Shown: piece after piece, positions 26,925 through 61,282 of the stretch
Layout of the letters: each line of letters opens with the position of its first letter
Numbering within the stretch: the stretch's first letter is position 1
NCBI GenBank assembly: GCA_043812795.1
Contig: JBDRLU010000033.1
Location: 27,763-91,762, forward strand
Source of the DNA: Chloroflexota bacterium
Lineage (GTDB): Bacteria > Chloroflexota > Dehalococcoidia > Dehalococcoidales > UBA2162
DNA length: 64,000 nucleotides
Reading direction: 5' to 3'
Notes under the pieces: model-generated
Databases searched by the model: none
Told to the model about the DNA's origin: nothing
What the model saw: the letters and a program-made list of their open reading frames with translations, nothing else
Position numbers and translations under genes: made by a program

Positions 26925-26937
26925 AGCTGATAAGAGA

Positions 26938-27501
26938 TTACTGCTCGAATCCCGCCCAGCGCCGGGAAAGGTTATGTTTTATCGCCTGCAGGTCAAGGAT
27001 TTTAGCGACCGTGTGGTCGACGATGTCATCGATAGTCTTGGGCCTGTGGTAGAAGCTCGGCACCGGCGGTAATATGATGGCACCCATCTCGGCGAGGCGG
27101 AGCATATTCCGGAGGTGCCCCTGATGGAGTGGGGTCTCTCGGGCGAGCAAGGTTAAGTTCTTCCTTTCCTTGAGGGTTACATCGGCCGCTCTTACCAGCA
27201 GGTTATCCGCGATGGAATAAGCGATGGCGGACATCGTCTTCATGCTGCATGGCGCGACTACCATCCCATCTCTTAAGAAGGAGCCGCTGGAGATACAGGC
27301 AGAAAGGTCATCAATGTCATAACAGAAACTGGCCAGCTTTCTGACCTCGCTTACTTTATAAGTTGTTTCGTGCTCGATAATCTGCTCGCCGGTTTTGGAA
27401 ATTATCAGGTGTGTTTCAACCTTTGCTTGACGTAGCACCTCGAGTAGCCGGATGCCGTAGATTGAGCCGGTGGCTCCAGAAATTCCCACAATAAGCGGCA
27501 T
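26938..27501 (-). CDS. ubiX: flavin prenyltransferase UbiX
   Basis: 187 aa. MPLIVGISGATGSIYGIRLLE... and the CSMKTMSAIA motif are characteristic of UbiX/Pad1. Confidence 0.9.
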   Translation of the reverse strand: MPLIVGISGATGSIYGIRLLEVLRQAKVETHLIISKTGEQIIEHETTYKVSEVRKLASFCYDIDDLSACISSGSFLRDGMVVAPCSMKTMSAIAYSIADNLLVRAADVTLKERKNLTLLARETPLHQGHLRNMLRLAEMGAIILPPVPSFYHRPKTIDDIVDHTVAKILDLQAIKHNLSRRWAGFEQ

Positions 27502-27650
27502 ACTTCCCTTGCCCTCCCGTTCTAATTAGTGCCGATTGTATGCGTTTCATGATGTGTTGTCAAACGGTGGGTTGTGAAGCGATGGATTCTTTGCTTCATA
27601 CCATGGTGGACTTGACGATTAAATCCTGTGCGTGTATTATCGGTATCAAT

Positions 27651-43533: not shown

Positions 43534-44835
43534 TTATCCGCCGGTTGGTAGTGGCTGTTGTTTCGGAGCAGCGGGCATGGTGAACATGAGGGCGGCACTC
43601 ACCAGGCCGGCGATGGCTAGAACAAGCCAGGTGGGATCGTACCTGCCACGGGTATCGAAGACCCACCCGACCAGTGGCGGCGTAATCACTGACATGACCG
43701 TAGTGAAAATTTGCTGCAAGCCGAAGATACTGCCAAAATGCCGGGCACCGAAATATTCTCTGATGAGAGTTGCCCTCAGGGGCGTGGCGGCACCGAAACC
43801 GATGCCATACAGGACGATGAATGGAACGGTCATCCAGGAAGAACCAGGCTTGATACCAGCGAAGAAGAATAAGGCGGCAGCCATCAGCATGGTAGAAATG
43901 CCCGTCAGGTAGCGCTTCTGGAAAATATCAACCAGCCAGCCCCACATGAACCGGGCGGGGACGCTCACTAAAAGGAATAACATCGCTACCATTGCCGCCG
44001 CTGCCCGGCTCAAACCTACCATCGGACTGGCCAGTTAAGGCACTACGTGTAATGTCACCGCACCGATGCTGGCCCAATGGAACATCTCGGCGAATCCCAG
44101 TTGCCAGAAGGCCCTGGTCCGGGAGGCTTCCCGGACGCCGGGATTATATTCGCTGAAGCGGACTCTTGGTGAGTCCTTTGAACTATCCGGTTTAACTCCA
44201 TCGGGGAGCAGGCCGTAGTCTTCGGGCCTATCTCGGTAAACGAAAGCGAGTGGTATACCGACGATGGCGACCATGGCGGCGACGAGGAGTAGTACCGTGC
44301 GCCAGCCGTAGGCATCAACCAGAAATACCAGCACCGGGACGCCGTAGCCGCCGAGGCCGATACCCATGGCCACAATGCCATTGACCTTGCCGATGCTCTT
44401 CTTGAACCATCGGGCAATGGCGGCGGCTGGTGCCATGTGCGTCGCGAGCGAGCTGCCGGCAGCGGCGACCAGGAAACTGGCGTATAACATGGGCAGATTT
44501 CTCGTCTGGCTGAGCAGAGCGTAGCCGAGAGCTTCGACCGCCACACCGATGAGTATTAACCACTTCGCCGGGAAACGGTCAACTGCCCGGCCGAAAAACG
44601 GGCTTAAGACGCCGGTCTCGATGCTGCGTAAGGACATCGCCAGTGAAATCTGGGCATAGCTCCAGCCGAATGAGGCGGCAATCGGGGTTATCAGTGTCGT
44701 CAGTCCCTTGGATACGACACCAACGACGAAAATATTTTCCACCACATAAGCGGCGACGATATACCAACCGTAAAAGACCGTTTTCGTCTTTTTGATGAGA
44801 GCTGTGGCGGAGAAGCTATTTACTTTCACGGACAA
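43534..44835 (-). pseudogene. OFA-type MFS transporter interrupted by an in-frame TAA (44035-44037)
   Basis: ORFs 44035-44835 and 43534-44022 are in the same frame. The read-through is ...VTLHVVP*LASPMVGLSRAAA, where related MFS proteins typically have Tyr (VPY). It is a paralog of 10805-12103. Confidence 0.75.
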
Positions 44836-45798: not shown

Positions 45799-47679
45799 AT
45801 GGTGATGTCAAAAAGTACGGTGGGTGGTTATGCCGGTAAAATTCTCCGGGTTGACCTGACCAGAGAACGTATCAGCGAAGAAACTCTGGACGAAGCGACT
45901 TTGAGGAAATGGGTCGGTGGGGTCGGGTTCGGGGCGAAGTACCTTTATGAAGAAGTCTCCCCGCGGGTCAAATGGGACAGCCCGGGCAACCGGCTCATCG
46001 TTGCCAGCGGCCCGCTGGGCGGGACAAGGGTAGGTGGCTCGGGGACGATTTCCATCAGTGCTAAAGGCTGTCTGACCAACGGGGCGACCTCGACCCAGGC
46101 CAATGGTTTCATGGGTGCTTACATGAAATTCGCCGGCTATGATGCGGTCATCTTCAAAGGCAAAGCCAAACGGTGGGTCTATCTTTATATGCACGATGGT
46201 ACCGCCGAACTCAGGGATGCCCAGCACCTGGTGGGTAAAAATACCTGGGAGACCGAAGACATGATAAAGGCGGAGTTAGGCTATAACGAGCGAGGGATGA
46301 GCGTTTTCGGTATCGGGCCAGCGGGCGAGAACCTGGTGAAATTTGCCGGTATTTTCGGCGATAAAGACCATGCCGCCGGTCACAACGGCATCGGGGCGGT
46401 GATGGGTGCCAAAAAGCTGAAGGCTTTTTGTGCCGCCCGGGGCCGGGGCAGTGTTCCGGTCAAGGACTCGGGGCAACTGTTGCCGGCGGTTGAAGCTATC
46501 TGGAAAGGACTCGAGAGCGACCCAACGACAAAGGCGGTACTCGACTGGGGTACCGGCGGGACTTACGAAGCCGGGGAACAAAGAGTGACCGCGGGAACGC
46601 TGCCGGTCAAGAACTACCTGACTACTCTTTACCCGGAGGCACGGGTGATGACGTGCCAGTACACCCGGGAACACTGGAATGCCAAACCGAACCCGTGCTG
46701 GGCCTGCCGGTCACACCATTGCCACATGATTACTATTACGGATGGGCCTTACCGGGGGCTGACCGTGGAAGAGCCGGAGTACGAGATGTTTGCTGCCTGG
46801 GGGTCCCTGGTGGGTAATACCGACCCGGCGGAAGCCCTTGTGCTGTCCAATCTGCTCACTTTGCTGGGGCTGGAAGGCAACGAAGCCGGCTTTCTGATGT
46901 CGATGTTGATTGAGCTTTATGAGAAGGGTGTACTTACGAAGAAAGATACCGACGGGCTCGAGTTGACGTGGGGCAACACGGCGGCGATGCGGACGCTGCT
47001 GGAGCGGATAGCCTACCGTGAGGGTGCTTTTGCCAAGCTGCTGGGTGAAGGCACAGTGCGGGCGGCCAAGGCGCTGGGGAAAGAGGCGCAGGACTGCGGA
47101 ATTTATGCCCTGAAAGGCCATTCTCCGCGGGGACATGACCACCGGGGGATGTGGCGGGAAATGTTCGATACGGTTACTTCCGACATCGGCACTTATGAAT
47201 CAGGCTACTGGGGACCGCCCGACCCCGATGTGCCCGGACTGCGGCACCGCTTTGCTCCCGACGAAGTGTCCACACATATCGCCAAGTCGAAAGGGAGACG
47301 TCAGTTCGAGGATGCCCTGGGCACTTGCGTTTTCTGCACGCGGGTGCCTCTCCAGCTGGTAGTGAATGCCTTTAATGCCGTCACCGGTTGGGACTTCACG
47401 CCGAAGGAGGCTCAGGACGTCGGCTTCAGAGCGGCTAATGCGCTGCGTGCGTTCAATATTCGGCACGGTGTTTCGGTAGAGCTGGAACGTCCGTCTCCGC
47501 GCTGGTCGTCGACGCCGGTGGATGGCCCGGCTAAAGGTATCAGTGTCGAGCCGCACTGGGACAGTATGCTGGACAATTACTATTCATTGATGGGCTGGGA
47601 CAGAAAGACAGGAAAACCCTTCCCGGAGACTTTGAAGAGCCTCGGGCTGGAAAATATTGCCGCCGACCTTTGGAAGTAA
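45799..47679 (+). CDS. aldehyde:ferredoxin oxidoreductase family protein (second paralog)
   Basis: 626 aa. GGYAGKILRVDLT at the N-terminus and the overall AOR_N/AOR domain pattern are present. Confidence 0.9.
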   Translation: MVMSKSTVGGYAGKILRVDLTRERISEETLDEATLRKWVGGVGFGAKYLYEEVSPRVKWDSPGNRLIVASGPLGGTRVGGSGTISISAKGCLTNGATSTQANGFMGAYMKFAGYDAVIFKGKAKRWVYLYMHDGTAELRDAQHLVGKNTWETEDMIKAELGYNERGMSVFGIGPAGENLVKFAGIFGDKDHAAGHNGIGAVMGAKKLKAFCAARGRGSVPVKDSGQLLPAVEAIWKGLESDPTTKAVLDWGTGGTYEAGEQRVTAGTLPVKNYLTTLYPEARVMTCQYTREHWNAKPNPCWACRSHHCHMITITDGPYRGLTVEEPEYEMFAAWGSLVGNTDPAEALVLSNLLTLLGLEGNEAGFLMSMLIELYEKGVLTKKDTDGLELTWGNTAAMRTLLERIAYREGAFAKLLGEGTVRAAKALGKEAQDCGIYALKGHSPRGHDHRGMWREMFDTVTSDIGTYESGYWGPPDPDVPGLRHRFAPDEVSTHIAKSKGRRQFEDALGTCVFCTRVPLQLVVNAFNAVTGWDFTPKEAQDVGFRAANALRAFNIRHGVSVELERPSPRWSSTPVDGPAKGISVEPHWDSMLDNYYSLMGWDRKTGKPFPETLKSLGLENIAADLWK

Positions 47680-48227: not shown

Positions 48228-49439
48228 TTAGTAAATTATCTTCTCTTCGACCAGCCGGGCTATCTCTTCCTTCGATAGCCCCAGCAACTGGCCGAAGACG
48301 TAATCGTTCTGCTCGCCGAGGAGAGGGGCGTAGCGCGGCGGCTTGCGGCCGAGGCCGCTGGCCTGCCAGGGCAGGTCGTACAGGGTCAGCCCACCGGCGA
48401 TGGGATGGTCCACATTTAAGAAAATGCCGCGTTCTTGAAAATGGGGGTCGAAGAAGACGCCTTCGATATTGAGCACCGGCGCGGCGGCCACGCCTGCTTT
48501 CTGCAATAGTTCAGCGGCCTCGTAGTCCGTGTGGGTGAGTGTCCATTCCGTGACGTGCTTATCGAGTTCATCCAGATTCCCAAGGCGGTGGGATAAGTCG
48601 GAGAATTTCGGGTCGCCGGTCCACGTGGGATTACCGATGGCTGTACAGAAAGCCTGCCATTCGTCTTCGGTCTTGACGGCGATGGAGACCCACTTGTCAT
48701 CGCCTTTACAGCGATAGTTGCCGTGCGGGGCCATGTGGGGCCGTAAATTCCCCTGGCAGCCCGCCACCCGCCCGTTCATGAAATAGTCCATCATGGCCTC
48801 ACCGATAAGCGATGTCGTCACTTCGCTCTGCGAGAGGTCGATATATTGCCCCTGGCCGGTCCGTTCGCGATATCTGAGGGCGGCCATGACGGTAAAGGCG
48901 CCATAAAGGGTCGCCACCACATCGGCATAGGCGTGCTTGAAGCCTAATGGGCGGTCGTCCCGGTAGCCGAGCATACTATCGATACCGGCGAGGGCACTTA
49001 ATAATGGCGCGTAGGCCAGCATTTCGGATAGCGGCCCGTACTGCCCGGCCGGAGACAGCGAGAGCATGATAATATCCGGCTTGATTTTGACCAGAGAGTC
49101 GTAGTCGAGGCCGTGGCGTTTCAAGGTGCCCACGCCGAAGTTTTCATTGACGATATCGCTTTTCCGGATGAGTTCTAAAATAAGCTCGTGTCCTCTGGGC
49201 GTCGTCCAGTCCAGCGTGATGCTCATTTTACTGCGGTTATTGTTGTGGAAGGCAGGATTGACTTCTAGGGTATCGCCCAGTTCAAACACTCTACCGAGGC
49301 GGAGGCCGTCCAGCCTCTTTTTCGATTCAATCTTGATGACTTCGGCACCATGGTCGGCGAGAATATGGCCTAAAACGGTGCCCGCCCACACCCAGCCGAA
49401 ATCGACGACACGGTAGCCTTCGAAAGGTAGCTTCGCCAT
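48228..49439 (-). CDS. family III CoA-transferase (CaiB/BaiF/Frc family), pair 1 subunit B
   Basis: 403 aa. YRVVDFGWVWAGTVLGHILADHGAEVIKIES matches the N-terminal family III signature. Its start overlaps the upstream stop (TAATG). Confidence 0.85.
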   Translation of the reverse strand: MAKLPFEGYRVVDFGWVWAGTVLGHILADHGAEVIKIESKKRLDGLRLGRVFELGDTLEVNPAFHNNNRSKMSITLDWTTPRGHELILELIRKSDIVNENFGVGTLKRHGLDYDSLVKIKPDIIMLSLSPAGQYGPLSEMLAYAPLLSALAGIDSMLGYRDDRPLGFKHAYADVVATLYGAFTVMAALRYRERTGQGQYIDLSQSEVTTSLIGEAMMDYFMNGRVAGCQGNLRPHMAPHGNYRCKGDDKWVSIAVKTEDEWQAFCTAIGNPTWTGDPKFSDLSHRLGNLDELDKHVTEWTLTHTDYEAAELLQKAGVAAAPVLNIEGVFFDPHFQERGIFLNVDHPIAGGLTLYDLPWQASGLGRKPPRYAPLLGEQNDYVFGQLLGLSKEEIARLVEEKIIY

Positions 49440-50653
49440 TATATCGTCCCCTCCTTCCGGAGTGCGTCCAGGTCGGCTTTGGAGTAGCCGAGTTTTTCAC
49501 AATATATCTCTTCGTTGTGCTCGCCGAGGCGCGGCGCCGCCCGTTGGATAAGAAAAGGTGTTTTCGAAAGCTGGTAGCCGGCACCGGGGTATTTCAGCTT
49601 ACCGGCCGCGGGATGGTCAATTTCGACGAAATAGCCCCGCTCTTTCAGGTGCTCGTCGTTGGCGACGTCCTCGACCGTCCTTATCGGCGCGGCGGGCACG
49701 CCGTTGCTCTGGCAAAGCTGAAAAATTTCTTCCTTGGTGTGCTGCATCAGCCAGGGCATCAGGTAGGCATCGGCCTGCGTGGCATATTCGTCGCTGGTCT
49801 TGATGCGGTCCTTGAAGATAGGGTCGTCGGCCCAGGCCGGATTGCCCATGATGCCGAGAAATTTTTGCCACTGGCGGTTCTGCGGCGTATCGATGCAGAC
49901 ATAGCCGTCCTTGCAGGGATAGACGGCATCGGTATAGCCCTGGTGGATGACGCGGAAGCCGGTGCGGGTACGGATGCCCTCTTCATCGAGGAAGGCCTGC
50001 GCTCCGTGCCCGATATGAAAAGTCGCCCAGCACTGGGCTTCGGCGAGGTCGATGTGGCTGCCTTCGCCCGTCCGGTCGCGGTTGAAGAGAGAAATCATGG
50101 TGACGAGGGCGCCCTGGAGTCCGGCCTGATAATGGGCCTGGCACATGGGCGGGGCTAACGGCTCGCGCTCGGGATAGCCGCTGGCGGCGCTGATGCCCCC
50201 TAAAGCACAGGTATTGATATCGTAGGCTTTCCAGTCTTTATACGGGCCGGTCAGGCCGAAAGGCGAGAGGGAGAGCATGATGAGCTTCGGGTTGATTTCT
50301 TTTACCGACTCGAAATCAAGCTTGAGTTCTTTTACCAGCGGGTAGGGGTAATTGTGGACAAAGATATCGGCGTCTTCGAGCAGTTTGAGAAAGATTTCAC
50401 GGCCGGCCGGCGGCTGCGGGGCGAGGGTGACGCCGAATTTATTGATATTGAGGTAGAGGAACAGGCCGCTTTTTTCGATATCCGGGGTGTCCCCGGGGAA
50501 GGGGCCGTGGCGGCGGGCTTCTTCACCGGTGTGCGGCGGCTCGATTTTGACGACCTCCGCCCCCAAGTCCGCCAGCAGTTTGGTACAAAATGGGGCCGAG
50601 ATAAAAGACCCCCACTCCACCACCTTCAAGTCAGCTAACGCTTGCTCAGCCAA
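49439..50653 (-). CDS. family III CoA-transferase, pair 1 subunit A
   Basis: 404 aa. LKVVEWGSFISAPFCTKLLADLGAEVVKIEPP matches the same family signature. Confidence 0.85.
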   Translation of the reverse strand: MAEQALADLKVVEWGSFISAPFCTKLLADLGAEVVKIEPPHTGEEARRHGPFPGDTPDIEKSGLFLYLNINKFGVTLAPQPPAGREIFLKLLEDADIFVHNYPYPLVKELKLDFESVKEINPKLIMLSLSPFGLTGPYKDWKAYDINTCALGGISAASGYPEREPLAPPMCQAHYQAGLQGALVTMISLFNRDRTGEGSHIDLAEAQCWATFHIGHGAQAFLDEEGIRTRTGFRVIHQGYTDAVYPCKDGYVCIDTPQNRQWQKFLGIMGNPAWADDPIFKDRIKTSDEYATQADAYLMPWLMQHTKEEIFQLCQSNGVPAAPIRTVEDVANDEHLKERGYFVEIDHPAAGKLKYPGAGYQLSKTPFLIQRAAPRLGEHNEEIYCEKLGYSKADLDALRKEGTI

Positions 50654-50941
50654 ATCCGGTCTGCCTCCTCTAAGTTAACCGAGGACATTATATACGGTAA
50701 GGCTGGTTCGACTCAATGGGAAGGGTTTTGGTCAGCAGTATATATCTGGACTTTAGCATTATTATGGAGTCTGAATGCCGATGATGCGGCGAAGACACAA
50801 AAAGTTTAGCCTGTTTGACAACCTTAACAAGATGTAAGATTACAAAGTAGGTTGAAAGCCTCTATGATAGTACTAATCTTACACAAAGAAGTTAACTCGA
50901 TGAAGGCCGCCACAAGACCGACTAAAACACTTAGATATATA

Positions 50942-51724
50942 CTAGAGCAAGTTGGACTGTTTCCACCTTCTATCAAAGTTCTCGTTTAATGCTTCGTAAA
51001 TGTTCTTACTACTCGCTTCATCCAACATGATAGCAAATGATTCCTTCGCGCCCAAATCCTTTATACTGTGACCGAGAAGTACTACAGAACTCGGAGAAAT
51101 AATGTATCTATCATGCAAATCAGTGTTAGGATAATTCCCGAAATCGATATTAGGATTTTCTGATTTGAAATCCTTAAGTTCCCTGAGCAACTTAGTTCTT
51201 GCATTCGTGTTTGTAATGTTTTCGATCCTAGTCAAGAATTTGATAGGTCTTCCTTTCACCTCTTTTACAATATCAAGTGTTCTCTCGCTACAATAGGGGT
51301 CTACAATCTTTATCTCACCATCAAGCGTGTTTAAGATGCTATTTGCTAAAATCCTTTTACTTGAATATCTCTGCTCAGGTTCGAAATAGAGTATCTCTAA
51401 CTCGCCCTCTCCTCTGAGAGACTTCAACTGTTCTTTGCCAGGTTTCATTATCTCGTAATAAACCCCGCTACTTTGCAGGTTAGTATAGATTCTGTCACCA
51501 GCTCTATTGAGAGATTGTGTTATGCTCGTTACTTTGATGTTTACCTCTTGTACATCCCGGAGGATAGAAGCTATTTGTTCTGCAGTCAATCTCTTTATTA
51601 ACAATTTGTCTTTAGCAACCCAAAGAATCCATAATGCCCGCTCGAGGATTGTATTACAATCCTCGAGCCGAGGGATGTCGCTAATGTCAGCGGTTAAGAA
51701 TCTCTCCTGGATGGTTAAGGCCAT
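50942..51724 (-). CDS. hypothetical protein: N-terminal winged-helix-like module + C-terminal degenerate PLD/MIT_C-like domain (DPY...LHDRYII...LLGHS)
   Basis: This 260-aa ORF is the last gene of an AT-rich cassette. The C-terminal half reads IKIVDPYCSERTLDIV...FLTRIEN...DLHDRYIISPSSVVLLGHSIKDLG. It resembles a single HxK-like PLD motif with K replaced by R, as in the MITD1 C-terminal PLD-like fold. The assignment is by eye. Confidence 0.5.
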   Translation of the reverse strand: MALTIQERFLTADISDIPRLEDCNTILERALWILWVAKDKLLIKRLTAEQIASILRDVQEVNIKVTSITQSLNRAGDRIYTNLQSSGVYYEIMKPGKEQLKSLRGEGELEILYFEPEQRYSSKRILANSILNTLDGEIKIVDPYCSERTLDIVKEVKGRPIKFLTRIENITNTNARTKLLRELKDFKSENPNIDFGNYPNTDLHDRYIISPSSVVLLGHSIKDLGAKESFAIMLDEASSKNIYEALNENFDRRWKQSNLL

Positions 51725-51730
51725 ATTATT

Positions 51731-52141
51731 TTACTTCTCCACGAATCCGCCTTCTACAAGTTGCTCACCCGTGTTAGTCAGAACCAATGCCTTCGCTTTA
51801 TCCTTTTTCTCTTTATCTTCCATCATGTAACCCTTTTTAATATTGTAAAACACCGCTAGATGTATGTTTTTTGGGAAGGGTTCTTTAGCTGATCTGAAGC
51901 CATTTTCCAAGTCGCTAACATTAAAAGGTGATACCGATTCATGCTTCTCAAGATAGTACCCTATCACCAACGTTTTATGGATTCCGCTTTTAGGTTTCTT
52001 AGACAACAGGAATTCTTTTAGGGACATCTTCTTTGGTGAACTACTCGGCTCAGTTTGAGATTTCGATTCTAATTTACTAATTCTTTTTTCATGGTCTTCC
52101 ATTTGCTTTTTTAATGCGTTGAGCGTATCTTCAACTGACAT
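51731..52141 (-). CDS. hypothetical protein: N-terminal coiled-coil + winged-helix-like module
   Basis: This 136-aa ORF overlaps the upstream gene by 11 nt and lies 6 nt from the downstream gene. Its pattern is TLVIGYYLEKH...FNVSDLENGFRSA...PKNIHLAVFYNIKKGYM...LTNTGEQLVE. Confidence 0.5.
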   Translation of the reverse strand: MSVEDTLNALKKQMEDHEKRISKLESKSQTEPSSSPKKMSLKEFLLSKKPKSGIHKTLVIGYYLEKHESVSPFNVSDLENGFRSAKEPFPKNIHLAVFYNIKKGYMMEDKEKKDKAKALVLTNTGEQLVEGGFVEK

Positions 52142-52571
52142 CCTTCTTGCCCTCCTTGCTCACCTTTTTGAGCATATCTTTGAGTGATTTCTCAACAACA
52201 TTCAAGGCTACCACATGATAACTTAACTTCCCTTTTGTAGTCGTCTTGATCTTATTATCATCTCGAAGGGTTTTTAGCCAAGGCAGCAGAGAACCTTTAG
52301 GAACACCTAATTCATCCATCAATTCACTATTACTCGCATCATCGGTAGGAGTTAATTCAGCTTCTTTAGCATATAACTTGCCAATCAAATAAAGTATGAT
52401 GCATTCCGTACCTGTCAGTTTATCCTTGGGTAGAACGTCAATCTTACCGTCTTTGGTGATTCGAATTAGTTGCTTCGCAAGGTCAAAATTCTTTTCAAGT
52501 GCACTTCCATAATCAACAGTCATCTCTTCAATTATTTTTCGTTTCAAGGTACTAAGAGTTTGATTGGCCAT
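52131..52571 (-). CDS. hypothetical protein with winged-helix-like module
   Basis: This 146-aa ORF is the first gene of the cassette, and GGAAGGTGA precedes the ATG. Its pattern is ECIILYLIGKLY...SNSELMDELGVPKGSLLPWLKTLRDDNKI...KGKLSYHV. Confidence 0.5.
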   Translation of the reverse strand: MANQTLSTLKRKIIEEMTVDYGSALEKNFDLAKQLIRITKDGKIDVLPKDKLTGTECIILYLIGKLYAKEAELTPTDDASNSELMDELGVPKGSLLPWLKTLRDDNKIKTTTKGKLSYHVVALNVVEKSLKDMLKKVSKEGKKDVS

Positions 52572-52608
52572 ATATCACCTTCCAAATATAATAATAATCT
52601 ATATACAA

Positions 52609-52638
52609 GCATAATCCTAATTTAGTATAATGTCAAGG
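52609..52638 (-). promoter_or_regulatory. possible promoter of the three-gene cassette
   Basis: On the minus strand: TTGACA (52638-52633), an 18-nt spacer, then TATGCT (52614-52609). It sits in a very AT-rich 280-nt upstream region. Confidence 0.3.
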
Positions 52639-52850
52639 GCTTTCTGTCTATGTTCGTATTAGTATTTATAATCCAATAATTCTTCGAACCATGCATAGAT
52701 TATTTTTATACTATCTTATTTATGTATGGCAAAAATCAAGGTGTGTGAAAAGCTCTGGCTTCACTAACATCCACTGCTGTGGAGAAATAGAATTTGCTGA
52801 AGTAGCGGAACGGCTGCCGGTATTCTAGCTCACGTACGTCTTACCCGGGG

Positions 52851-53582
52851 TTATTTATAAATCGAAGACATAAAAGTAATATAGTAAATTTCGCCGGACT
52901 TGTAGGTGCCGACAGCGCCATAGGTATTCAGGTCGTTGATAAGCACGTTTTCGTAATCATAAACATTTACTGTCCAGGTTATCAGGGCGGCATTGGCCAC
53001 CTGCTCGACCGTGCCGTAGCGTATCGCCCAGAAAACGTTTTGATAGACGCCACCCAGGCTGGAGTAATGGTATTTCCCCAGGGCCGCCATTTCCTTGCTG
53101 TTCTGGAGGGCCAGCCCGTAAAGGTTTACTCCCCACTGGAGTTCAGGAACACCGGCTTTTCTCCGTTCGGCGTTGATGATGGCGAAGATAGTCTGGTCGA
53201 TTTCATCTTCTTTTAGTGCCGTTGTCCCCGAAATCATGGCATCATATTTACTTTGCAGGTCGGCGAATTTATCATTCAGTTCGCTATATCTGGTATTCAG
53301 GTCGTCGTAGTTAGCCTGGGCAGTCTGGATGGCCGCCGTTTGCGTTTCATATTGTTTTTGCAGGTCTTCATAGCGGGTATTCAAGGCCTGATATTGGGCG
53401 TCGCCAAGATTGGCGGCGTTGAGTTGCGACTGCAGGGCGGCGACCTGTCCTTTGACGGTCTCCAGTTCGGCCTTCACGGCATCGTACTCTTGCTGGGATA
53501 CCCCTGATTTGCAGCCAAGCATCGTCGCCAGAATAACGATTGACAGAAGCGAAAAGAGACTGATTTTTATTTTCCTGGCCAT
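52851..53582 (-). CDS. lipoprotein with coiled-coil region and C-terminal CAP/SCP (YkwD-like) domain
   Basis: The signal peptide plus lipobox is LSIVILATMLGC. A Q/A/L-rich heptad region follows, then INAERRKAGVPELQW...NSKEMAALGKYHYS, typical of CAP domains. Confidence 0.7.
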   Translation of the reverse strand: MARKIKISLFSLLSIVILATMLGCKSGVSQQEYDAVKAELETVKGQVAALQSQLNAANLGDAQYQALNTRYEDLQKQYETQTAAIQTAQANYDDLNTRYSELNDKFADLQSKYDAMISGTTALKEDEIDQTIFAIINAERRKAGVPELQWGVNLYGLALQNSKEMAALGKYHYSSLGGVYQNVFWAIRYGTVEQVANAALITWTVNVYDYENVLINDLNTYGAVGTYKSGEIYYITFMSSIYK

Positions 53583-53620
53583 ATCACACCTTCCACGGCG
53601 ATATTGTTTTTAAAGGGCGA

Positions 53621-53654
53621 CCTCACCCTTAATCCCTCTCCTAGAAGGAGAGGG
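53621..53654. repeat. REP-like element, family 2 (CCTCACCCTTAATCCCTCTCC + 8-bp hairpin CCCTCTCC/GGAGAGGG)
   Basis: It shares CCTCACCCTTwATCCCT with the minus strand of 16060-16080. Confidence 0.5.
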
Positions 53655-53665
53655 AAAATAATGAT

Positions 53666-53684
53666 AAGAGGGCTTCGCCCTCTT
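53666..53684 (-). terminator. hairpin downstream of tRNA-Gly
   Basis: AAGAGGGC-GAA-GCCCTCTT on the minus strand, followed by ATCATTATTTT. Confidence 0.45.
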
Positions 53685-53741
53685 CTAGCAACTCCATTAA
53701 GACCGCTGCTTCAACAAAAACCAAATTGAACCTTTTTAAAG

Positions 53742-53816: not shown

Positions 53817-53905
53817 CTGAATTAAATTCATTCTAGCCTAAAAGATGGGGCATGTAAAGGAAAAGAGCTTGCTCTTTTCGGGGAAAATGAGGGACCGGCC
53901 CGGCC

Positions 53906-54736
53906 TTATCCTTTTGGAGCGGCAACCGGGCAGGCGGGAGTAAGACCAGCTTCGGCAATCCGGAGCAGAGAGCTCTTACCGGATTCGGACAGCCCGAAGG
54001 TATCCAGATTCTTCTTGAGGGTATCCAAATCACCAAAGCCGCCGGCGTACCCGTTCAAGCGGGCGATTGCGGTAGAGTCCCGGAAACTTTCAGGCTCCGG
54101 GTAAATTTTGTATAAGGTATCCACCACGTCATGCCTTAGTTTCAAATAATACTTCTGGTGATAGTCCTCGGCCACATAAAAAGCGGTAAAGGGTTCGATG
54201 CCCGTGTAGACGGTCTTGCCCAGCCTTGCCTCTTCTGCCTGTCTGGACTCGATGGCGAGTTTATGCTGTTCTTCATTGGTATAAAAGATAGCCGACCGAT
54301 ATTGTTCCGAATAAGGTTGACTGGTGATATCGTGCCCGCTCCAGAAGGCGGTTAATAATTGCTGGTAAGAGACAACGGACGGGTCGTATTCAACCGCCAC
54401 GGTCTCGCTATGGTCGCCGATGTTGTAGTAAGTGGGCGCCGCCGTCGTGCCTCCGGCATACCCTACCCTGGTGCGGATAACTCCTTCGATACTCCCGAAC
54501 TGGGAGTCGGCACCCCAGAATCAGCCCAGGGCGAAATAAGCCGTCTCCACAGAGTTGTGAGGTACCGTATCCAGCAAAGGCGGCTCCAGCTTTGCCGATG
54601 GAATAGCTGAATAATCGCTGCTATTTATCGAACGCTTACATCCGAACATCGGAAAAACACTCACCAAAGTCAAGAAGACTAAAATCGATAGGCCTATTTT
54701 CCCAGACATGAGTTTGCCAACTACTTTACATATCAT
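53906..54736 (-). CDS. msrA: peptide-methionine (S)-S-oxide reductase MsrA, predicted selenoprotein (in-frame TGA at 54521-54523) with lipoprotein signal and C-terminal extension
   Basis: ORFs 54521-54736 and 53906-54400 are in one frame with a single TGA between them. The read-through is ...ETAYFALG-U-FWGADSQFGSIEGVIRTRVGYAGGTTAAPTYYNIGDHSETVAVEYDP..., and the TGA replaces the Cys of the GCFWG active site. The N-terminus is MSGKIGLSILVFLTLVSVFPMFGC. Confidence 0.7.
54491..54507 (-). promoter_or_regulatory. candidate bacterial SECIS hairpin
   Basis: On the minus strand: ACUCCC-AGUUC-GGGAGU (6-bp stem with GU in the loop), starting 13 nt after the UGA. Confidence 0.45.
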
Positions 54737-54823
54737 TATAACCTATCTCAGGTTATGCCGCAACAAGACGGATTGTGGTAGGTCCTGTTTGCATTAACCT
54801 ATCTCGGCCAAAACCGTGGAATC

Positions 54824-56032
54824 TTATTCGAAGACGCCGTCGTTGAAGAGCGCGAGGAACTCGTCCGGCGGCATGCCGAGCAACTCGCGGCAAACATACT
54901 CGGTGTGTTCGCCGAGGCAGGCGGCCGCTCTTTCTCCGACGGCCGGCGTCAGAGGCAGGCGGAACAACTCGCCGAGGTGCAGGTAATTACCCATTTCGGC
55001 GTGTTTAAGCTCCCAGAAAGTGTTGCGGGCCAGCAACTGCCGGTCCTGGACGAGGTCGCGCGGGCTATTGACGATACCCGCGGCCACGCCATGGCCTTCC
55101 AGCATTTCCATCATGGCCCCGGCGGTGAAATTGATTGTCCACTCGCCGACCAGCCTGTCCAACTCGTCCTCGTTCTTTTTTCTGGCGGCAAAGGAGGCAA
55201 AGGCTTTTCTTTTTGTCCAGGGGAGGTTGCCGGTAGCCTCGCCGAAGTTACGCCAGTCCTCTTCCGTTATTACGGAGATAGCACACCACCTATCGTCGCC
55301 CTGGCACGGGTACACGCCGTTCGGTGCCGCATCGCCGCAACGGTTGCCCTGTCTCGTTGTCTCCCGACTATTCAGGGCATAGTCCATAATCGAAGAGGCG
55401 AGGAACTGGGTGCTGGCTTCCAGTTGCGAAACATCGATGTTCTGACCGTTACCGGTCTTTTTCTTATGGATTAAGGCGGCGAGTAAGCCGCAGGCGCTCA
55501 AGGCCCCGCTGATAAAATCAGGGTAACCGCCGAAAGGCTGCACCGGCTCTCGGTCGGGCCAGCCGGTCAGGGAGGTAAAACCGGCCATGCCGACCAGATT
55601 GGTGCCCGTGCCCGAAACTCCGTTCAACGGTCCGGTCTGCCCCATCTGGCTGATACTTAGCGTGATGATATCCGGTTTTAGCTGCTTGACGTGCTCGTAG
55701 TCGAGGCCGTACCGGGCCATGATGCCGGGCGTAAAGTTATCGGTAATGACATCCCCCCATTCGACCAGCCGCCGGACGACGCGGTCAGCTTTGGGATGGC
55801 TCAGGTTAAGGGCGAGGCCGTATTTATTGGCGGCAAAAAAAGCATAATAGCCGCTGCGGTCGATGCCGGGCACATTGTCTTTGTACGGCCCGGATACCCT
55901 GAGGAAATCGGGGTGAGTGGCCGACTCGACGTGAATTACCGTGGCACCGTAGTCGGCCAGGAACTTCATCATCAGCGGCCCGGCCACGCTCCAGGTAAAA
56001 TCGACTATTTTGATACCTTCAAGGGCTTTCAT
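54824..56032 (-). CDS. family III CoA-transferase, pair 2 subunit B
   Basis: 402 aa. IKIVDFTWSVAGPLMMKFLADYGATVIHVES is most similar to the 48228-49439 product. Confidence 0.85.
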   Translation of the reverse strand: MKALEGIKIVDFTWSVAGPLMMKFLADYGATVIHVESATHPDFLRVSGPYKDNVPGIDRSGYYAFFAANKYGLALNLSHPKADRVVRRLVEWGDVITDNFTPGIMARYGLDYEHVKQLKPDIITLSISQMGQTGPLNGVSGTGTNLVGMAGFTSLTGWPDREPVQPFGGYPDFISGALSACGLLAALIHKKKTGNGQNIDVSQLEASTQFLASSIMDYALNSRETTRQGNRCGDAAPNGVYPCQGDDRWCAISVITEEDWRNFGEATGNLPWTKRKAFASFAARKKNEDELDRLVGEWTINFTAGAMMEMLEGHGVAAGIVNSPRDLVQDRQLLARNTFWELKHAEMGNYLHLGELFRLPLTPAVGERAAACLGEHTEYVCRELLGMPPDEFLALFNDGVFE

Positions 56033-56041
56033 CGCTGGCTT

Positions 56042-57277
56042 CTAGATTACACCTCTCTGTTTTAAATCGAGTAATTGTTCTGCTGACATGCCCATCTCGT
56101 CCTGGTAAATTTCGGCGTTATGTTCTCCCACGCGGGGGGCTGGACGGCGTATTTCGACAGGCTGCTCTGAAAATTTAGCGAAGGCCCGGGGGCAGGTAAC
56201 ATTGCCCAGTCCGGGGTGTTTAACGGTTGTCCAGAATTCTCTGGCTTTGAGCTGCTTATCGGCAAGCAGGTCTTTCAGTTCATAGACCGGAAAGAGCATC
56301 AGGCCTCTCTTCAAAGCCCCCTCGAAAAGTTCGGCTCTGGTGTGCCGGGCAAAGAAGGCAGTTATCGGCTTCTCGATGGCGGCCCAATCTGCGGCGGTCA
56401 CTCTGGCTAAATCGAACGAGGCCCAGTCTTTTTCTTTCAGGTAATCGGGGGCCATCTTCTCCTCGTCCATCCACTCGACCAGCGGGCGGTTGGTCTTCAC
56501 GCCCCGGGCGCCGCCGTAAATCGTCAGGGTGATGAAGCCGTCCTGACATTGCCACGTTTGTTTTTGGGTAGCCGCCGAGGTCAGCCCGGTACGGCGGTTA
56601 CCGGCACGCTTGACCAGATTGGCATTCAATGTCCAGTGGGGAATGGTATTGATGGTGACCGGCACCAGGCATTGTTGCATGGAAACATCAACGTGTTGAC
56701 CCTGGCCGCAGGTCTCCCGGTAACAGAGGGCAATCAGGGTAGCGAGAGCGGCGTAGGTGCCGGCAAACAGGTATGCCTGGGGCGGCCCGCCGACGGTCAC
56801 CGGCGGTCTATCGGCATCTCCGGTCAGCCAGGTGATGCCGCCCATACCCATTGAAGTAAGGTCGGAGGCTTTGTAGTCGCAGTACGGCCCCTCCTGGCCG
56901 AAGGGAGTAATTGAGGTGAGGATGATTTTAGGATTGTCCGCCTTGATATTGTCGTAACCCAAGCCGAGCCGGTCGAGATAGCCGGGCGGGTAGGACTCAA
57001 TGATTACATCTGAAGTTGTAGCCAGCTTGCGGAAGATAACCTGTCCTTCGGGAGTTTCAATGTCCAGGCTGATGCCTCTTTTGCTGAGGTTATAAGCAAG
57101 CCAGTATAAACTACTCTTTGAATGTCCCTTCTTACGGCTGAAGGGGCCGAGCCTTCGTGATGAGTTGCCACCAGGCTTTTCCACCTTGATGACGTCGGCG
57201 CCCATATCGCCGAGCAATTTCCCGGCGAAGCAGCCTTTTTCATCGCAAAGGTCCAAGCACCGATAGCCCTCGAGCAT
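56042..57277 (-). CDS. family III CoA-transferase, pair 2 subunit A
   Basis: 411 aa. CLDLCDEKGCFAGKLLGDMGADVIKVEKP matches the same family signature. Confidence 0.85.
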   Translation of the reverse strand: MLEGYRCLDLCDEKGCFAGKLLGDMGADVIKVEKPGGNSSRRLGPFSRKKGHSKSSLYWLAYNLSKRGISLDIETPEGQVIFRKLATTSDVIIESYPPGYLDRLGLGYDNIKADNPKIILTSITPFGQEGPYCDYKASDLTSMGMGGITWLTGDADRPPVTVGGPPQAYLFAGTYAALATLIALCYRETCGQGQHVDVSMQQCLVPVTINTIPHWTLNANLVKRAGNRRTGLTSAATQKQTWQCQDGFITLTIYGGARGVKTNRPLVEWMDEEKMAPDYLKEKDWASFDLARVTAADWAAIEKPITAFFARHTRAELFEGALKRGLMLFPVYELKDLLADKQLKAREFWTTVKHPGLGNVTCPRAFAKFSEQPVEIRRPAPRVGEHNAEIYQDEMGMSAEQLLDLKQRGVI

Positions 57278-57295
57278 ACCCTGCCCCGCTGCGTC

Positions 57296-58462
57296 CTAGT
57301 CCTTTTTGGCTGGTGGCGCCGGATATTTCACCTGACCGCCGGCCCGCGACGGTAAGATAACCGTGGCTGACCCGGGCAGAGTAACCTCGCCCCGCTGGTT
57401 TTGTGCCCAGCATTTAATATCCACCAGGTACTGGTCGCCTTCCTGGTATTTCCGGGCGACTTCACCCATTAACCACGTCGTATCGCCGACAACATTGAAC
57501 CGGCGCAGGTCGCCGCGCAGTTTCTTCAAGAAGCCGTTGTCGCCCATCCAGTTGGTTATCAGGTTAAAAAGCCAGGAAATCCGCTCGCAACCGTAGTCAT
57601 AGGCGCCGGGCAGTCCGATGGTCTGTGCCCGGCTGTCTTCCATGTGTACCAGTTCGGGCACATCGGCCAGGCCGGTCTTGGTATCAATCATATCGCTGCC
57701 GGCATGTCGCTGGAGAAATGACAGGGCTAAGCCGTGGGCCTTCATGAAAGGACTGCCGGCGCCCATCAGCCAGGCATAGATATCACGGCGGCTGAGCGGT
57801 CCTTTAACGACCGGGACTATTTTATCGCCTTCAGCGACATCTTCCCAGTAACGCGGCTTATCACCACGGATTTCTTCAGCACGATAATCGGCGTAAATTT
57901 TCTCGATGTCCTCCGGAGTGTAGGTGGCCGATTCAATATCACTATATTTCCCTTTTTCCTGGCTGGCCTGCCGGCCGGCCCGGACGCACCAGTCCAGGTC
58001 TTTGGCGACGAGTTCTCCCCGCTGGTTGTAATAGAGAATGTCATGGTACTGGATAACGGTCTTGCCAGCCATCTGACTCTGTTTTACCTGCACATCCACC
58101 ATCTCGTTGGAGTAGGTAAAAGTATCGCCTTCCAGTACCGGCTGATAAAATTCCCACTCGTCGCCGGAATGCCAGGCATGAATGCCGGGCATCCCTCTCC
58201 CCTGGGCAGCCCAATAGACGCTATACAGAAAAGCGGGCGGGGCAACCAGACGTCCGTATTTAGTCTTGCGGGCATATTCGGGGTCGGTATAGAGCGGATT
58301 ACCGTCCCCGATACCATCGCAGAAATGCCGGATAGTATCGGCGGTGGCGGCGGTGTTGAAGTAAGGCCGGCGGGGTTTCCAGACGATGCCGATTCTTTCT
58401 TTTAGCTCGGCGATGGCTTCGTCGGTGATTTGCTCATAGATTTTCTGCTTCCGTTCCGTCAT
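57296..58462 (-). CDS. double hotdog-fold (MaoC/FAS1-dehydratase-like) acyl-CoA hydratase/dehydratase
   Basis: 388 aa. The N-terminal half has IRHFCDGIGDGNPLYTDPEYA (N-terminal hotdog of acyl dehydratases), and a second hotdog-like half follows. The call is family-level only. Confidence 0.6.
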   Translation of the reverse strand: MTERKQKIYEQITDEAIAELKERIGIVWKPRRPYFNTAATADTIRHFCDGIGDGNPLYTDPEYARKTKYGRLVAPPAFLYSVYWAAQGRGMPGIHAWHSGDEWEFYQPVLEGDTFTYSNEMVDVQVKQSQMAGKTVIQYHDILYYNQRGELVAKDLDWCVRAGRQASQEKGKYSDIESATYTPEDIEKIYADYRAEEIRGDKPRYWEDVAEGDKIVPVVKGPLSRRDIYAWLMGAGSPFMKAHGLALSFLQRHAGSDMIDTKTGLADVPELVHMEDSRAQTIGLPGAYDYGCERISWLFNLITNWMGDNGFLKKLRGDLRRFNVVGDTTWLMGEVARKYQEGDQYLVDIKCWAQNQRGEVTLPGSATVILPSRAGGQVKYPAPPAKKD

Positions 58463-58562
58463 GGTCTCTCCTCCTTCGACACGGTATGCTGGTTTTAGTC
58501 TGGACTGTCCTCAGCTACGTTATCAAAAAGTCTCAGCCGAGTCAATCGGGTAACTCGCACGT

Positions 58563-59771
58563 TTACCGCACCAGGATGGTAGCCTGGCTGGCGGCGGGTT
58601 CGCCGTCAATCATGCCGCCGCTATTCTGGGCCAGAGCGGCTTTTGGCCCTTTGCCGTTATGGCCGGGTACTTGCCGGCGCCCGGCTTCGCCGCGCAGTTG
58701 CCAGACTAGCTCGGCTATCTGGGCCAGGCCGGTAGCGCCGATGGGATGGCCGCGGGCGGCCAGCCCGCCGCTGGTATTAACCGGCAGGCGGCCGGTAAGT
58801 GTAGTCGTCCCATCTTCAACCAGCCTGGGTGCATCTTCCGCCGAGCAGAAGCTACAGGCGACATACCTCATCATTTCCGCGGGCGACATGGCATCGTGGA
58901 CTTCGGCTACTTCGATGTCTTCCGGGCCGATGCCGGCCTGCTCGTAAGCCATGGTCACCGGCTCGGCATAGCCGCCGCGGAGGCCGATAAGTTTTTGCGC
59001 CTCGGCATCATCGTTCTGGGGATTACGAAAATAGTTCGACCGCAGGACGGAGGCAGCGATAGCGACCGGCGGCCTCGAAGTGAACCGGTTAGCTACGTCC
59101 TTAGCACATAAAATAGCGGCCGCGGCGCCATCGGCCATGCTTGAGCACATATATAAAGTGAGTGGGTAGCAGACGACTCTTGAGTTCAGTACCTCTTCTA
59201 TAGTCATCGGTTGCTGGAATTGGGCATGCGGATTAAGGGAGCCATTATATTTGTTTTTGACGGCTACTCTGGCAAAGTGTTCCCGGGTCCAACCGAAATA
59301 GGTCATGCACTTGCGCAGTATCATGGCATAGTTGGCCACAAAGGTGAAACCTAAATTACCCGATACCTCGACGTCACTGTTCTGTCCCATCGCCAGGAGG
59401 GCACGGGATGTATCCTCGCAAAATAGTTTCTCGGCACCAACGGCCAGGGCTACATCGTAGAGACCGGCGCCGATGGCAATCCATGCCTCACGCAGGGCGA
59501 TGGCCGAACTGGCGCAGGCACCTTCGACGTTGACCACAGGTATCCCGCTGAAACCCGAATTGTGCAGGATAACCTGTCCCCGCACTGCCTCCTGTCCGGT
59601 GGTAATCCCACCCACGGCATTGCCGACATAGGCTGCTTCAATAGCCTTGGGGTCGATACCGGCATCATGGATTGCATTCCAGATGGCCACCCGTCCCAGG
59701 TCGCTCAGGCTCTGGTCGAGGTACCTGCCGAATTTGGTCATACCGACGCCGATAAGGGCTACTTCTCTCAT
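58563..59771 (-). CDS. thiolase-domain protein (SCP-x/BbsB/DitF-type, non-acetoacetyl)
   Basis: 402 aa. It has MREVALIGVGMTKFG, the active-site region NVEGACASS and C-terminal NTSGGL...GHPIGATG. Confidence 0.85.
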   Translation of the reverse strand: MREVALIGVGMTKFGRYLDQSLSDLGRVAIWNAIHDAGIDPKAIEAAYVGNAVGGITTGQEAVRGQVILHNSGFSGIPVVNVEGACASSAIALREAWIAIGAGLYDVALAVGAEKLFCEDTSRALLAMGQNSDVEVSGNLGFTFVANYAMILRKCMTYFGWTREHFARVAVKNKYNGSLNPHAQFQQPMTIEEVLNSRVVCYPLTLYMCSSMADGAAAAILCAKDVANRFTSRPPVAIAASVLRSNYFRNPQNDDAEAQKLIGLRGGYAEPVTMAYEQAGIGPEDIEVAEVHDAMSPAEMMRYVACSFCSAEDAPRLVEDGTTTLTGRLPVNTSGGLAARGHPIGATGLAQIAELVWQLRGEAGRRQVPGHNGKGPKAALAQNSGGMIDGEPAASQATILVR

Positions 59772-59780
59772 GCTGTACCT

Positions 59781-60218
59781 CTAATGTTGGTCGACCGGCT
59801 TGAATTTCCAGCCGATAATGTCATTGCCGTGTTCATCAAATTTAATCTTACCGATAACCAGTTCCATCTCCTGTCCTATTTGCAGTGCATCCGGTTCCGG
59901 CTGGCAGCCTTCAATCAGTGTAAAAAGGCGCACTTTTTCCGGGAGAACGACGAAAGCTTGAATATAGGGTGTGGTAAAACCGGGTGGCCCCTGCATCGAT
60001 ACGGTGAAGCTCTCCAGCTTGCCTCTCGTACTCAGGTGGATTTCGCTCATCGTGTCATCCTTCATGCAGTTAGGGCAGATAGCGGCCTTAGGGAACGTGG
60101 TCAGGCCACATTCCTCACACTTACTCCCGATAAGATAAGGCCGGTCATTGGCGGATTCCGGGATATGGAACCAGCCTTCTTTTATCAGGGTAACCCTCTT
60201 CTCTGTTTTGTTGTTCAT
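59781..60218 (-). CDS. Zn-ribbon + OB-fold protein (DUF35; thiolase partner, BbsA-like)
   Basis: It has the rubredoxin-like CEECG...CPNC followed by an OB-fold region, and lies immediately upstream of the thiolase. ATG 60218 is preferred over the ORF start at 60293. Confidence 0.75.
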   Translation of the reverse strand: MNNKTEKRVTLIKEGWFHIPESANDRPYLIGSKCEECGLTTFPKAAICPNCMKDDTMSEIHLSTRGKLESFTVSMQGPPGFTTPYIQAFVVLPEKVRLFTLIEGCQPEPDALQIGQEMELVIGKIKFDEHGNDIIGWKFKPVDQH

Positions 60219-60396
60219 GGCTACTTCAAAATCACCTAATGTTATCACGTAGAATGTTTTGAGTAAACAAGAATCATCCGACCCGTACTTCATTACAATG
60301 ACAGATAGGTGCAGCAGCTATAACAAACGGAACTTACGCAGTATCCGGTAACTTCTACTGTTCCCCCAGTTTGCCTTCCGTGATAAGATATTAGTA

Positions 60397-61282
60397 ATGA
60401 GGATTGGGGCTTTTCAGTTAAACGAGCCCGTCCCCGAACTCAGGGAGCCGCACGTATTAACGATGCTACGGCCCTGGGTGGATGTCGGTAGTGTGGGGAC
60501 GCTGACGCTGGCCTGGCTGGAACGGCATTTTCAGGCGAAAGACCTGGGTCGGCTGTCCCGGCCCGGTGATTTTTTTGATTTCACCCGGTACCGGCCAACT
60601 ATCTATACGGAGGATGGGGAGCGGCGGCTGGCTATCCCTAATGCCTATATCACCTATGCCAGGCAGGAAACTGGTAACGACTTCCTCTTCGTCCATCTTC
60701 TCGAGCCTCATAACCACGGTGAGGTCTATGTCGATTCGCTGGTGCGTATCCTGACGAAGTTCGGGGCGAAAAGGTATTGCCTCATCGGGGAGCATGTACG
60801 ATTATATGCCCCATACCCGGCCGTTACTGGTGACAGGGTCGGCAGTCGGTGAGGGAGCCAGACAGGCTCTGGCCGAAATGAAAGTCGGCTCCAGCGACTA
60901 CCAGGGTCCGACGTCAATAACCGGCCTCATCACACAACGTGCACCGAGCCTGAATATGGATACGATGAGCCTTATCGTCCATCTGCCTCAATACACCCAA
61001 CTGGATGAGGACTATATGGGAACGGCGCGGGTGATGGAACTTCTCGGCCCTCTCTATCATGTGCCGGTGGATGAAGCTTACCTTAATGAAGCGGCGCGGC
61101 AGATAGAGCAGGTCAACCGGGCACTAGAGCGGAACCCGCAATTGAAAGCGGTCATCGAACAGTTGGAGAACCAGTACGAAGCGCGGACTCAACCGAAGCA
61201 GGAAACGGAAAAACCGCCGCTCTCACCGGAGATAGAAAAGTTCCTTTCGGAAATGGAAAAGCGCTTCCGCGACAATCAATAG
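60397..61282 (+). pseudogene. PAC2-family (proteasome-assembly-chaperone-like) protein, frameshifted in a G4 run
   Basis: Frame 1 gives ...LRPWVDVGSVG...FFDFTRYRP...KRYCLIG. The next frame gives (S)MYDYMPHTRPLLVTG.... The junction is at ATCGGGGAGC (60787-60790). Removing one G restores CLIGSMYDYMPHTRP. Confidence 0.7.

Follow-up and report, generated by a model that had tools for sequence, protein, structure and literature searches.

Forms of methionine sulfoxide reductase A (MsrA) that carry selenocysteine (Sec) in a GUFWG motif are a recognised selenoprotein family (PMC13188914; PMC1976440). The closest described relative of the gene reported here is the MsrA of Clostridium oremlandii (CoMsrA; PDB 4LWJ, 4LWK, 4LWM and 4U66), a cytosolic protein of 209 residues without a signal peptide and without any Cys, which is of the 1-Cys type and is recycled by glutaredoxin; MsrA classes with C-terminal resolving cysteines are known as the 2-Cys and 3-Cys types (PMC4479559). 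Exported or lipoprotein selenoproteins have been described in anaerobic Firmicutes (SaoB, SaoX and SaoC; bioRxiv 10.1101/2022.07.06.499078), and extracytoplasmic Msr enzymes of the Cys type include MsrAB2 of S. pneumoniae with the lipoproteins Etrx1/2, the periplasmic MsrAB of H. influenzae and Neisseria PilB (PMC3914529, PMC9404787). Here, we analysed a stretch of 64,000 nucleotides (nt) from a Chloroflexota bacterium of the Dehalococcoidia (contig JBDRLU010000033.1, positions 27,763 to 91,762; hereafter the window, in whose coordinates all its features are given), in which an initial annotation had pointed to an msrA gene with an in-frame TGA at the catalytic Cys codon. This gene, on the minus strand, very likely encodes a functional MsrA selenoprotein that is of the C. 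oremlandii type and carries an export signal. The selenocysteine reading is supported because the catalytic domain spans the TGA, the TGA is conserved among homologues, a hairpin downstream of it both covaries and is constrained, TGA is otherwise a normal stop, and the best structural match is the Sec-containing MsrA of C. oremlandii.

Translation of the minus strand from 54736 to 53906 gave a single msrA frame whose sole interruption is the TGA at 54523-54521. The two open reading frame (ORF) fragments at 54521-54736 (71 amino acids (aa)) and 53906-54400 (164 aa) are therefore, as initially annotated, in the same frame and split only by this codon. The read-through product runs ...VETAYFALG-UGA-FWGADSQFGSIEGVIRTRVGYAGG..., and the stop occupies the position of the nucleophilic Cys in the MsrA GCFWG motif, so that the UGA at 54521-54523, when read as Sec, provides the catalytic residue of a G-U-F-W-G motif. 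Read through this codon, the coding sequence covers 53906-54709 on the minus strand, with 267 codons from the ATG at 54709 or 276 from an alternative ATG at 54736, and ends with a TAA at 53908-53906. We predict that ATG 54709-54707 (MSGKIGLS...) is the likely start rather than ATG 54736, because the closest full-length homologues begin with MS.K.... In GenBank, where the contig measures 93,284 bp, only a 194-aa fragment is annotated (MFH1382232.1), which corresponds to the part downstream of the TGA and does not include the catalytic residue; this entry is a misannotation of the gene as a truncated protein.

With Cys substituted for the UGA in the Pfam and TIGR00401 searches, the MsrA catalytic domain (PF01625, PMSR; 54137-54544, minus strand) matched across the TGA, at residues 65-200 of the 276-aa read-through, with an E-value of 1.9e-42 and 145.5 bits against a cut-off of 23.7, and the NCBIfam model TIGR00401 (msrA) scored 128.9 bits against a cut-off of 108.1. 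This match across the codon, together with the presence of TGA at the same codon in homologues, bore out the claim that the TGA replaces the Cys of GCFWG. The best PDB matches were to CoMsrA, which natively contains Sec, in its U16C and U16S variants (4lwj and others, E 1e-54). The alignment to 4lwj was ungapped over 201 residues (query 62-262, chain 6-206); it placed the UGA on Cys16, natively Sec, and aligned Y103, E111, Q145, Y146, H193 and Y196 of the window protein with Tyr47, Glu55, Gln89, Tyr90, His137 and Tyr140, the active-site residues of CoMsrA (PMC4333827). The catalytic domain is followed by a C-terminal helical domain of the CoMsrA type (53951-54136, minus strand, residues about 201-262 of the window protein), to which the Pfam family PF20939 gave a weak match of 20.6 bits, below its cut-off of 23.7. 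For a structural comparison we used the AlphaFold2 model of a Cys-form homologue (P0003, 70% identical) and not of the window protein itself. This model, with a predicted local distance difference test (pLDDT) value of 91.4, has five helices at 195-255 and superimposes on 4lwj with a Foldseek TMt of 0.89 over 202 columns; the linker of about 38 residues, which has a conserved P-x-[IL]-D motif in the window protein, is well ordered in it, and the C-terminal tail is disordered (pLDDT < 50). The C-terminal extension of about 70 aa that had been singled out as unusual does exist and does end in a Cys (TPACPV), but its bulk is the known CoMsrA helical domain, and what is extra at the C-terminus is confined to the final ~14 residues, which include the Cys-Pro. 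The window protein thus shares with CoMsrA the Sec of G-U-F-W-G, the catalytic and helical domains and all active-site residues, and goes beyond it by a lipoprotein-type leader of ~24 residues, the ~38-residue linker and the ~14-residue Cys-Pro tail.

To place the TGA in context, the closest genomic homologues were scanned with one genome per species, which yielded 80 loci. At the catalytic codon, 76 of these loci have TGA and four have TGT or TGC; further Cys forms, such as P0003 and P0040, were found among the homologues. The TGA carriers belong to at least eight phylum-level groups and comprise, by their record titles, Dehalococcoidia, Anaerolineae, several Desulfobacterota lineages, Nitrospirota, Spirochaetes, Firmicutes, Actinobacteria, Synergistota and Calditrichota, with the isolates Desulfosarcina widdelii PP31 (L075) and Desulforamulus aeronauticus DSM 10349 (L036) among them. 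The initial statement that Sec-MsrA is known in a few organisms consequently had to be revised, as the TGA form is far more widespread. The selenoprotein-richest bacteria include Dehalococcoidia metagenome-assembled genomes (MAGs) as well as the Desulfocapsaceae genome that contains one of our loci, L012 (PMC13326102). At two loci a tRNA-SeC(tca) lies no more than 10 kb from the TGA-containing msrA, namely at 15423-15520 of L038 (a Desulomonile tiedjei MAG) and at 2006-2100 of L058 (a Nitrospirota MAG).

Directly downstream of the UGA, folding and covariation confirmed the 6-bp hairpin that had been noted to start 13 nt after this codon (ACUCCC-AGUUC-GGGAGU; 54507-54491), the G-U-U of its AGUUC loop lying 20-22 nt after the UGA. 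In a gap-free alignment of 72 distinct sequences covering 48 nt from the UGA, 80% of the cells of a 7-pair structure could pair and the five core pairs were mostly kept. The covariation score of 0.221 compared with 0.080 ± 0.014 in shuffled alignments, none of 500 of which reached it, and was far above that of every slid register. Pair 18-32 occurred as CG (33), AU (15), UG (9) or UA (6) and pair 19-31 as UA (47) or GC (11), and the coupled amino-acid changes matched the pairing (D(GAC)..S(AGU), E(GAA)..I(AUU) and D-A(GCC)..Q/L/R). The loop consensus was [A/G]GUU[C/U], with G24, U25 and U26 invariant. Three invariant Gly codons in this alignment served as an internal control for synonymous sites: at the two outside the stem, Gly +3 and Gly +13, the wobble base varied freely (entropies of 1.91 and 1.92 bits, respectively), whereas at Gly +9, in the stem, its entropy was 0.35 bit and the codon was GGG in 68/72 sequences. 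Likewise, the wobble base of the Ser/Ala codon +6 was C in 70/72, and loop position G24, the wobble base of CGG, CAG or UGG, was fixed in 72/72. These patterns indicate that RNA-level selection acts on a stem-loop with a G-U-U loop about 20 nt after the UGA. The selenocysteine insertion sequence (SECIS) of E. coli fdhF has a comparable geometry: it is an intragenic stem-loop that closely follows the UGA and presents G-U in its apical loop at a distance of ~20 nt. The likeness is confined to this geometry; the two sequences are unrelated, and the hairpin in the window has a shorter stem of 5-7 bp and no evident bulged U. The hairpin was also considered as a marker of TGA genes only and was rejected as such, given that 4/8 Cys forms keep it fully. 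The full hairpin with a GUU loop occurs in the TGC or TGT genes of L081 (position 1206), L083 (533), L085 (1139) and L086 (423), and that of the closest Cys form, P0003, is identical to the hairpin in the window; these hairpins are candidate SECIS fossils left by recent Sec-to-Cys conversions.

The predicted signal peptide, MSGKIGLSILVFLTLVSVFPMFG|C, is encoded at 54638-54709 (minus strand; Cys codon 54640-54638) and has a lipobox-like end. Its leader, MSGK followed by LSILVFLTLVSVF and P-M-F-G-C, combines a basic N-terminus with a 13-residue hydrophobic core, the best 15-residue Kyte-Doolittle window being 2.65, and the closest homologues share the lipobox-like Cys, their leaders ending in ...PVAGC, ...PISGC or ...LLSGC. 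A crude hydrophobicity and lipobox screen of 73 TGA-type genes found an N-terminal hydrophobic segment in 63, 27 of which have a Cys in the lipobox position. The lipobox-like sequence (...VFPMFGC) on which the initial annotation based a lipoprotein-type signal is present, but it is not unusual, since an export leader is the rule in this clade. In three relatives, sequences with twin-arginine translocation (Tat) motifs (NRRSFMKLLG... and RRAFVRGLG...) stand in place of Sec-type leaders, with RRSFMK in L053 (about 1100-1303) and L079 (about 9850-10058) and RRAF in L024 (about 9830-10082); judged by these motifs, the three proteins would be selenoproteins that fold before export. Because three different export routes occur within a single orthologous group, the enzyme is predicted to be extracytoplasmic: very probably it is exposed on the outside of the cytoplasmic membrane, and lipidation of the leader Cys is probable. 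SaoB, SaoX and SaoC are likewise selenoproteins of strict anaerobes that start with a signal or lipoprotein leader, but their folds and functions are unrelated (ABC-transport binding proteins). MsrAB2, MsrAB and PilB perform MsrA chemistry outside the cytoplasm and repair surface or periplasmic proteins (PMC3914529, PMC9404787); unlike the window enzyme, a Sec-MsrA that stands alone and for which no partner gene is conserved, they are Cys enzymes fused to MsrB (in PilB also to a thioredoxin domain) with thioredoxin-like partners encoded nearby.

The C-terminal tail, AGLTPACPVAAPKG (53909-53950, minus strand), contains Cys269 (codon 53932-53930), the only Cys of the mature window protein and a candidate resolving cysteine. 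Its motif, GL.P.CP, is conserved in the closest clade in Sec and Cys forms alike; across the 73 Sec forms, the tail Cys is present in 24, and most of the rest are entirely devoid of Cys. We propose, by analogy, that the tail Cys could resolve the selenenic acid as a selenenylsulfide. In the 2-Cys and 3-Cys MsrAs of E. coli, bovine and M. tuberculosis origin, a Cys on a flexible tail could similarly reach the oxidised catalytic residue (PMC4479559), but these enzymes use Cys rather than Sec, do not have the helical domain, and are cytosolic and reduced by thioredoxin. A sub-threshold match linked the window MsrA to another family, NCBIfam NF041383 ('VPGUxxT family thioredoxin-like (seleno)protein, type 2'), with 43.7 bits against a cut-off of 275, the match to the MsrA domain covering profile positions 142-238. 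That family appears to contain an MsrA-like module, possibly as a thioredoxin-MsrA fusion of relevance to the missing reductant.

Taken together, we envisage that SelB with Sec-tRNA(Sec) would bind the hairpin while the ribosome pauses at the UGA and that selenocysteine would then be inserted to give the G-U-F-W-G active site, as in the established bacterial selenocysteine pathway. The N-terminal signal peptide, as read from the sequence, would direct the unfolded chain through the Sec translocon, and the Cys after ...PMFG would be lipid-modified, so that in this anaerobic Chloroflexota bacterium the mature enzyme would be held at the outside of the cytoplasmic membrane, where it may reduce methionine-S-sulfoxide in surface or exported proteins. 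In analogy to the 2-Cys and 3-Cys MsrAs, the selenolate would attack the sulfoxide, yielding a selenenic acid with which the flexible C-terminal Cys (TPACPV) would form a selenenylsulfide.

Several findings weigh against this reading of the locus and lend themselves to other explanations. The in-frame TGA could mark a pseudogene or a sequence error, that is, a dead gene in which a TGC or TGT Cys codon was mutated or mis-called. Other genes of the same record are indeed broken (a transporter with an in-frame TAA, and a DAHP synthase and a PAC2-family gene with frameshifts), and the GenBank entry comprises only the downstream part of msrA. Neither tRNA-Sec nor selA, selB or selD was found in the 64-kb window by tRNA and Rfam scans and by Pfam searches of about 58 ORFs. 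A tblastn search for SelD in the window and all loci, a weak test made with an E. coli sequence as query, likewise returned no match, and the only other in-frame-TGA selenoprotein candidates in the window were overlaps with neighbouring genes. A broken gene, while not implausible a priori, is nevertheless highly improbable because of the cross-genome conservation: the TGA recurs in 76/80 independent assemblies from many phyla, the rest of the frame is intact with all catalytic residues present, the hairpin beyond the TGA displays compensatory exchanges and constrained synonymous sites, and the 194-aa product would be devoid of the catalytic nucleophile and of the first strand. The chance that TGA instead encodes Trp or Gly genome-wide (genetic code tables 4 or 25) is close to nil. 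What speaks for such a code is that a protein-database search returned, besides mostly 160-194-aa fragments starting after the catalytic site, eight full-length proteins spelled G-W-F-W-G. However, TGA ends 12/58 long ORFs of the window and 25/73 TGA-type msrA genes, so it is an ordinary stop in these organisms. Moreover, for one of the eight (P0002) the DNA has TGA at the W and the translation of the locus under table 11 differs from the database sequence, and we attribute the W to gene callers that switch to a Trp-reading code on short contigs. By the established MsrA mechanism, Trp or Gly at the nucleophile position gives an inactive enzyme. It might further be argued that the hairpin is not a SECIS but a by-product of the D-S-Q/R-F-G-S peptide and codon bias, with read-through otherwise driven or absent. 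In line with this, the hairpin is short and sits within a conserved peptide, its 76-nt fold energy is not exceptional (z -1.45), and neither a gathering scan of the whole window nor a permissive scan of 54400-54600 against Rfam detected a SECIS or other RNA family. In addition, four of the eight Cys forms with available DNA keep all five core pairs and two keep four, which would fit either a fossil SECIS or a hairpin that arises in part from the conserved D-S-[QR]-F-G-S peptide. We still consider it very unlikely that the hairpin has no role as a SECIS, as the amino-acid changes occur in the combinations expected from base pairing and the wobble bases of the stem-loop are nearly fixed while those of the same amino acids outside it vary freely. 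The two most divergent Cys forms, L074 and L039, moreover retain just 3/5 and 1/5 core pairs, with L085 (5/5) as an exception to this tendency. With the reservation that the number of genes is small and that L085 does not conform, the Cys-form hairpins read as fossil SECIS elements that decay after repeated Sec-to-Cys conversions.

The other points against our reading concern the location of the enzyme and its recycling, and are compatible with a genuine Sec-MsrA that is not extracytoplasmic, in which the hydrophobic stretch would be a membrane anchor or remain unprocessed and the catalytic domain would lie on the cytoplasmic face, recycled by glutaredoxin or thioredoxin as in CoMsrA. The lipobox of the window protein is atypical and fits a relaxed pattern only, with Met at -3 and Pro at -4; Pro at -4 is disallowed by the PROSITE lipobox rule. 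A leader is absent from 10/73 TGA-type relatives and also from the Desulforamulus protein (L036), and the characterised C. oremlandii MsrA is cytosolic and glutaredoxin-dependent (PMC4479559). Furthermore, the selenenylsulfide of an extracytoplasmic enzyme would have to be reduced by a putative thiol-disulfide oxidoreductase on the same side of the membrane, a step we propose purely by inference. Pfam searches of the about 58 ORFs detected no CcdA, DsbD or thioredoxin-like partner in the window, and neighbourhood clustering of 77 loci revealed no conserved reductant gene beside msrA, no family except msrA itself occurring in more than 8 loci. Against a cytoplasmic location, positive charges at the N-terminus ahead of the hydrophobic core predict that the chain is oriented N-in, C-out. 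In 27 relatives this core is immediately followed by a Cys, others carry clear Tat motifs (RRSFMK), and the three export routes lead to the same outside location. Exported or lipoprotein selenoproteins also have a precedent (bioRxiv 10.1101/2022.07.06.499078). On balance, we regard a cytoplasmic Sec-MsrA as unlikely and retain the exported selenoprotein as our interpretation.

While Sec-MsrA as such is an already known family, the family-level pattern, with Sec as the rule, export as the rule and a Cys-Pro-tailed subtype, is an unreported but unsurprising extension of it. We put at about even the chance that the majority of Sec-MsrAs with a helical domain in strict anaerobes belong to an extracytoplasmic branch that has not been characterised and that includes a 'Sec plus C-terminal Cys-Pro' subtype. 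Such a branch, of which we found no description in the searchable literature, may span Chloroflexota, Desulfobacterota, Nitrospirota, Spirochaetota and others, its members being lipoproteins, Tat substrates or signal-anchored proteins. If it exists, it would constitute a selenium-dependent repair system at the cell surface to which no CcdA or thioredoxin-type partner is linked as a source of electrons, which raises the questions of how a selenoenzyme outside the cytoplasm is re-reduced and why strict anaerobes spend selenium on the repair of surface methionines; in Dehalococcoidia the respiratory enzymes face outward. Our data also show that Sec-MsrA is the dominant form of helical-domain MsrA in anaerobes and not a rarity of a few Clostridia, and that automated pipelines systematically miss the family, most of its database relatives being truncated or carrying a spurious Trp. 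Finally, the hairpins kept in Cys forms offer a small natural series for the study of Sec-to-Cys conversion and SECIS decay.

Regarding the immediate flanks of msrA, a TATAAT hexamer read by eye at 54735-54740 (minus strand) overlaps ATG 54736 and is a possible -10 element. It was missed by the promoter scan because the -35 match upstream of it, TTGCGG at a 17-nt spacer, agrees in just 3/6 bases. A consensus scan placed a terminator-like hairpin of five pairs with a T-rich tail directly 3' of the stop codon (53893-53905, minus strand), which is weak evidence for termination there. Just downstream lies a tRNA-Gly(CCC) at 53816-53742, and directly beyond it a low-GC stretch (50700-53700; GC content 0.44-0.46 compared with 0.52-0.58 in the flanks) that contains three ORFs without a Pfam match (50942-52571) and a CAP-domain lipoprotein with a coiled-coil N-terminal half (52851-53582). 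This stretch looks like an island, but a search did not reveal the second copy of the tRNA-Gly 3' end by which an integrated element at 50.7-53.7 kb would be recognised.

On either side, at 48228-50653 and 54824-60293 (minus strand), are genes for four paralogous family III CoA-transferases, a MaoC-like hydratase, a thiolase-like protein and a ChsH2-type OB/zinc-ribbon protein, a gene set reminiscent of clusters for the degradation of side-chain or aromatic acyl-CoAs. In the window this set surrounds msrA, but it is unlinked to msrA in the other genomes of the 77 loci. Genes of anaerobic metabolism are located at 17283-22073, 25021-27501 and 45799-47679 and encode two aldehyde:ferredoxin oxidoreductases, an indolepyruvate/2-oxoacid:ferredoxin oxidoreductase pair and a UbiD/UbiX-type decarboxylase pair; a gene similar to bacterial proteasome-assembly chaperones (26532-26924) lies within these regions. 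The three disrupted genes mentioned above are a major facilitator superfamily (MFS) transporter at 43534-44835 (minus strand), in which an in-frame TAA at 44037-44035 (...HVVP*LASP...) separates two halves that both match PF07690, a DAHP synthase on the plus strand split into overlapping ORFs in different frames by an apparent frameshift (27540-28079 and 27956-28666), and a PAC2-family gene split in the same manner and on the same strand (60397-60852 and 60794-61282). The split of the transporter is either a pseudogene or a base-call error, and the three genes together suggest that this MAG contains either sequence errors (indels or substitutions) or decaying genes. Lastly, a 640-aa protein encoded at 35957-37879 (minus strand) has a C-terminal type I dockerin domain as its sole Pfam match, a domain that is unusual outside cellulosome-forming Firmicutes.

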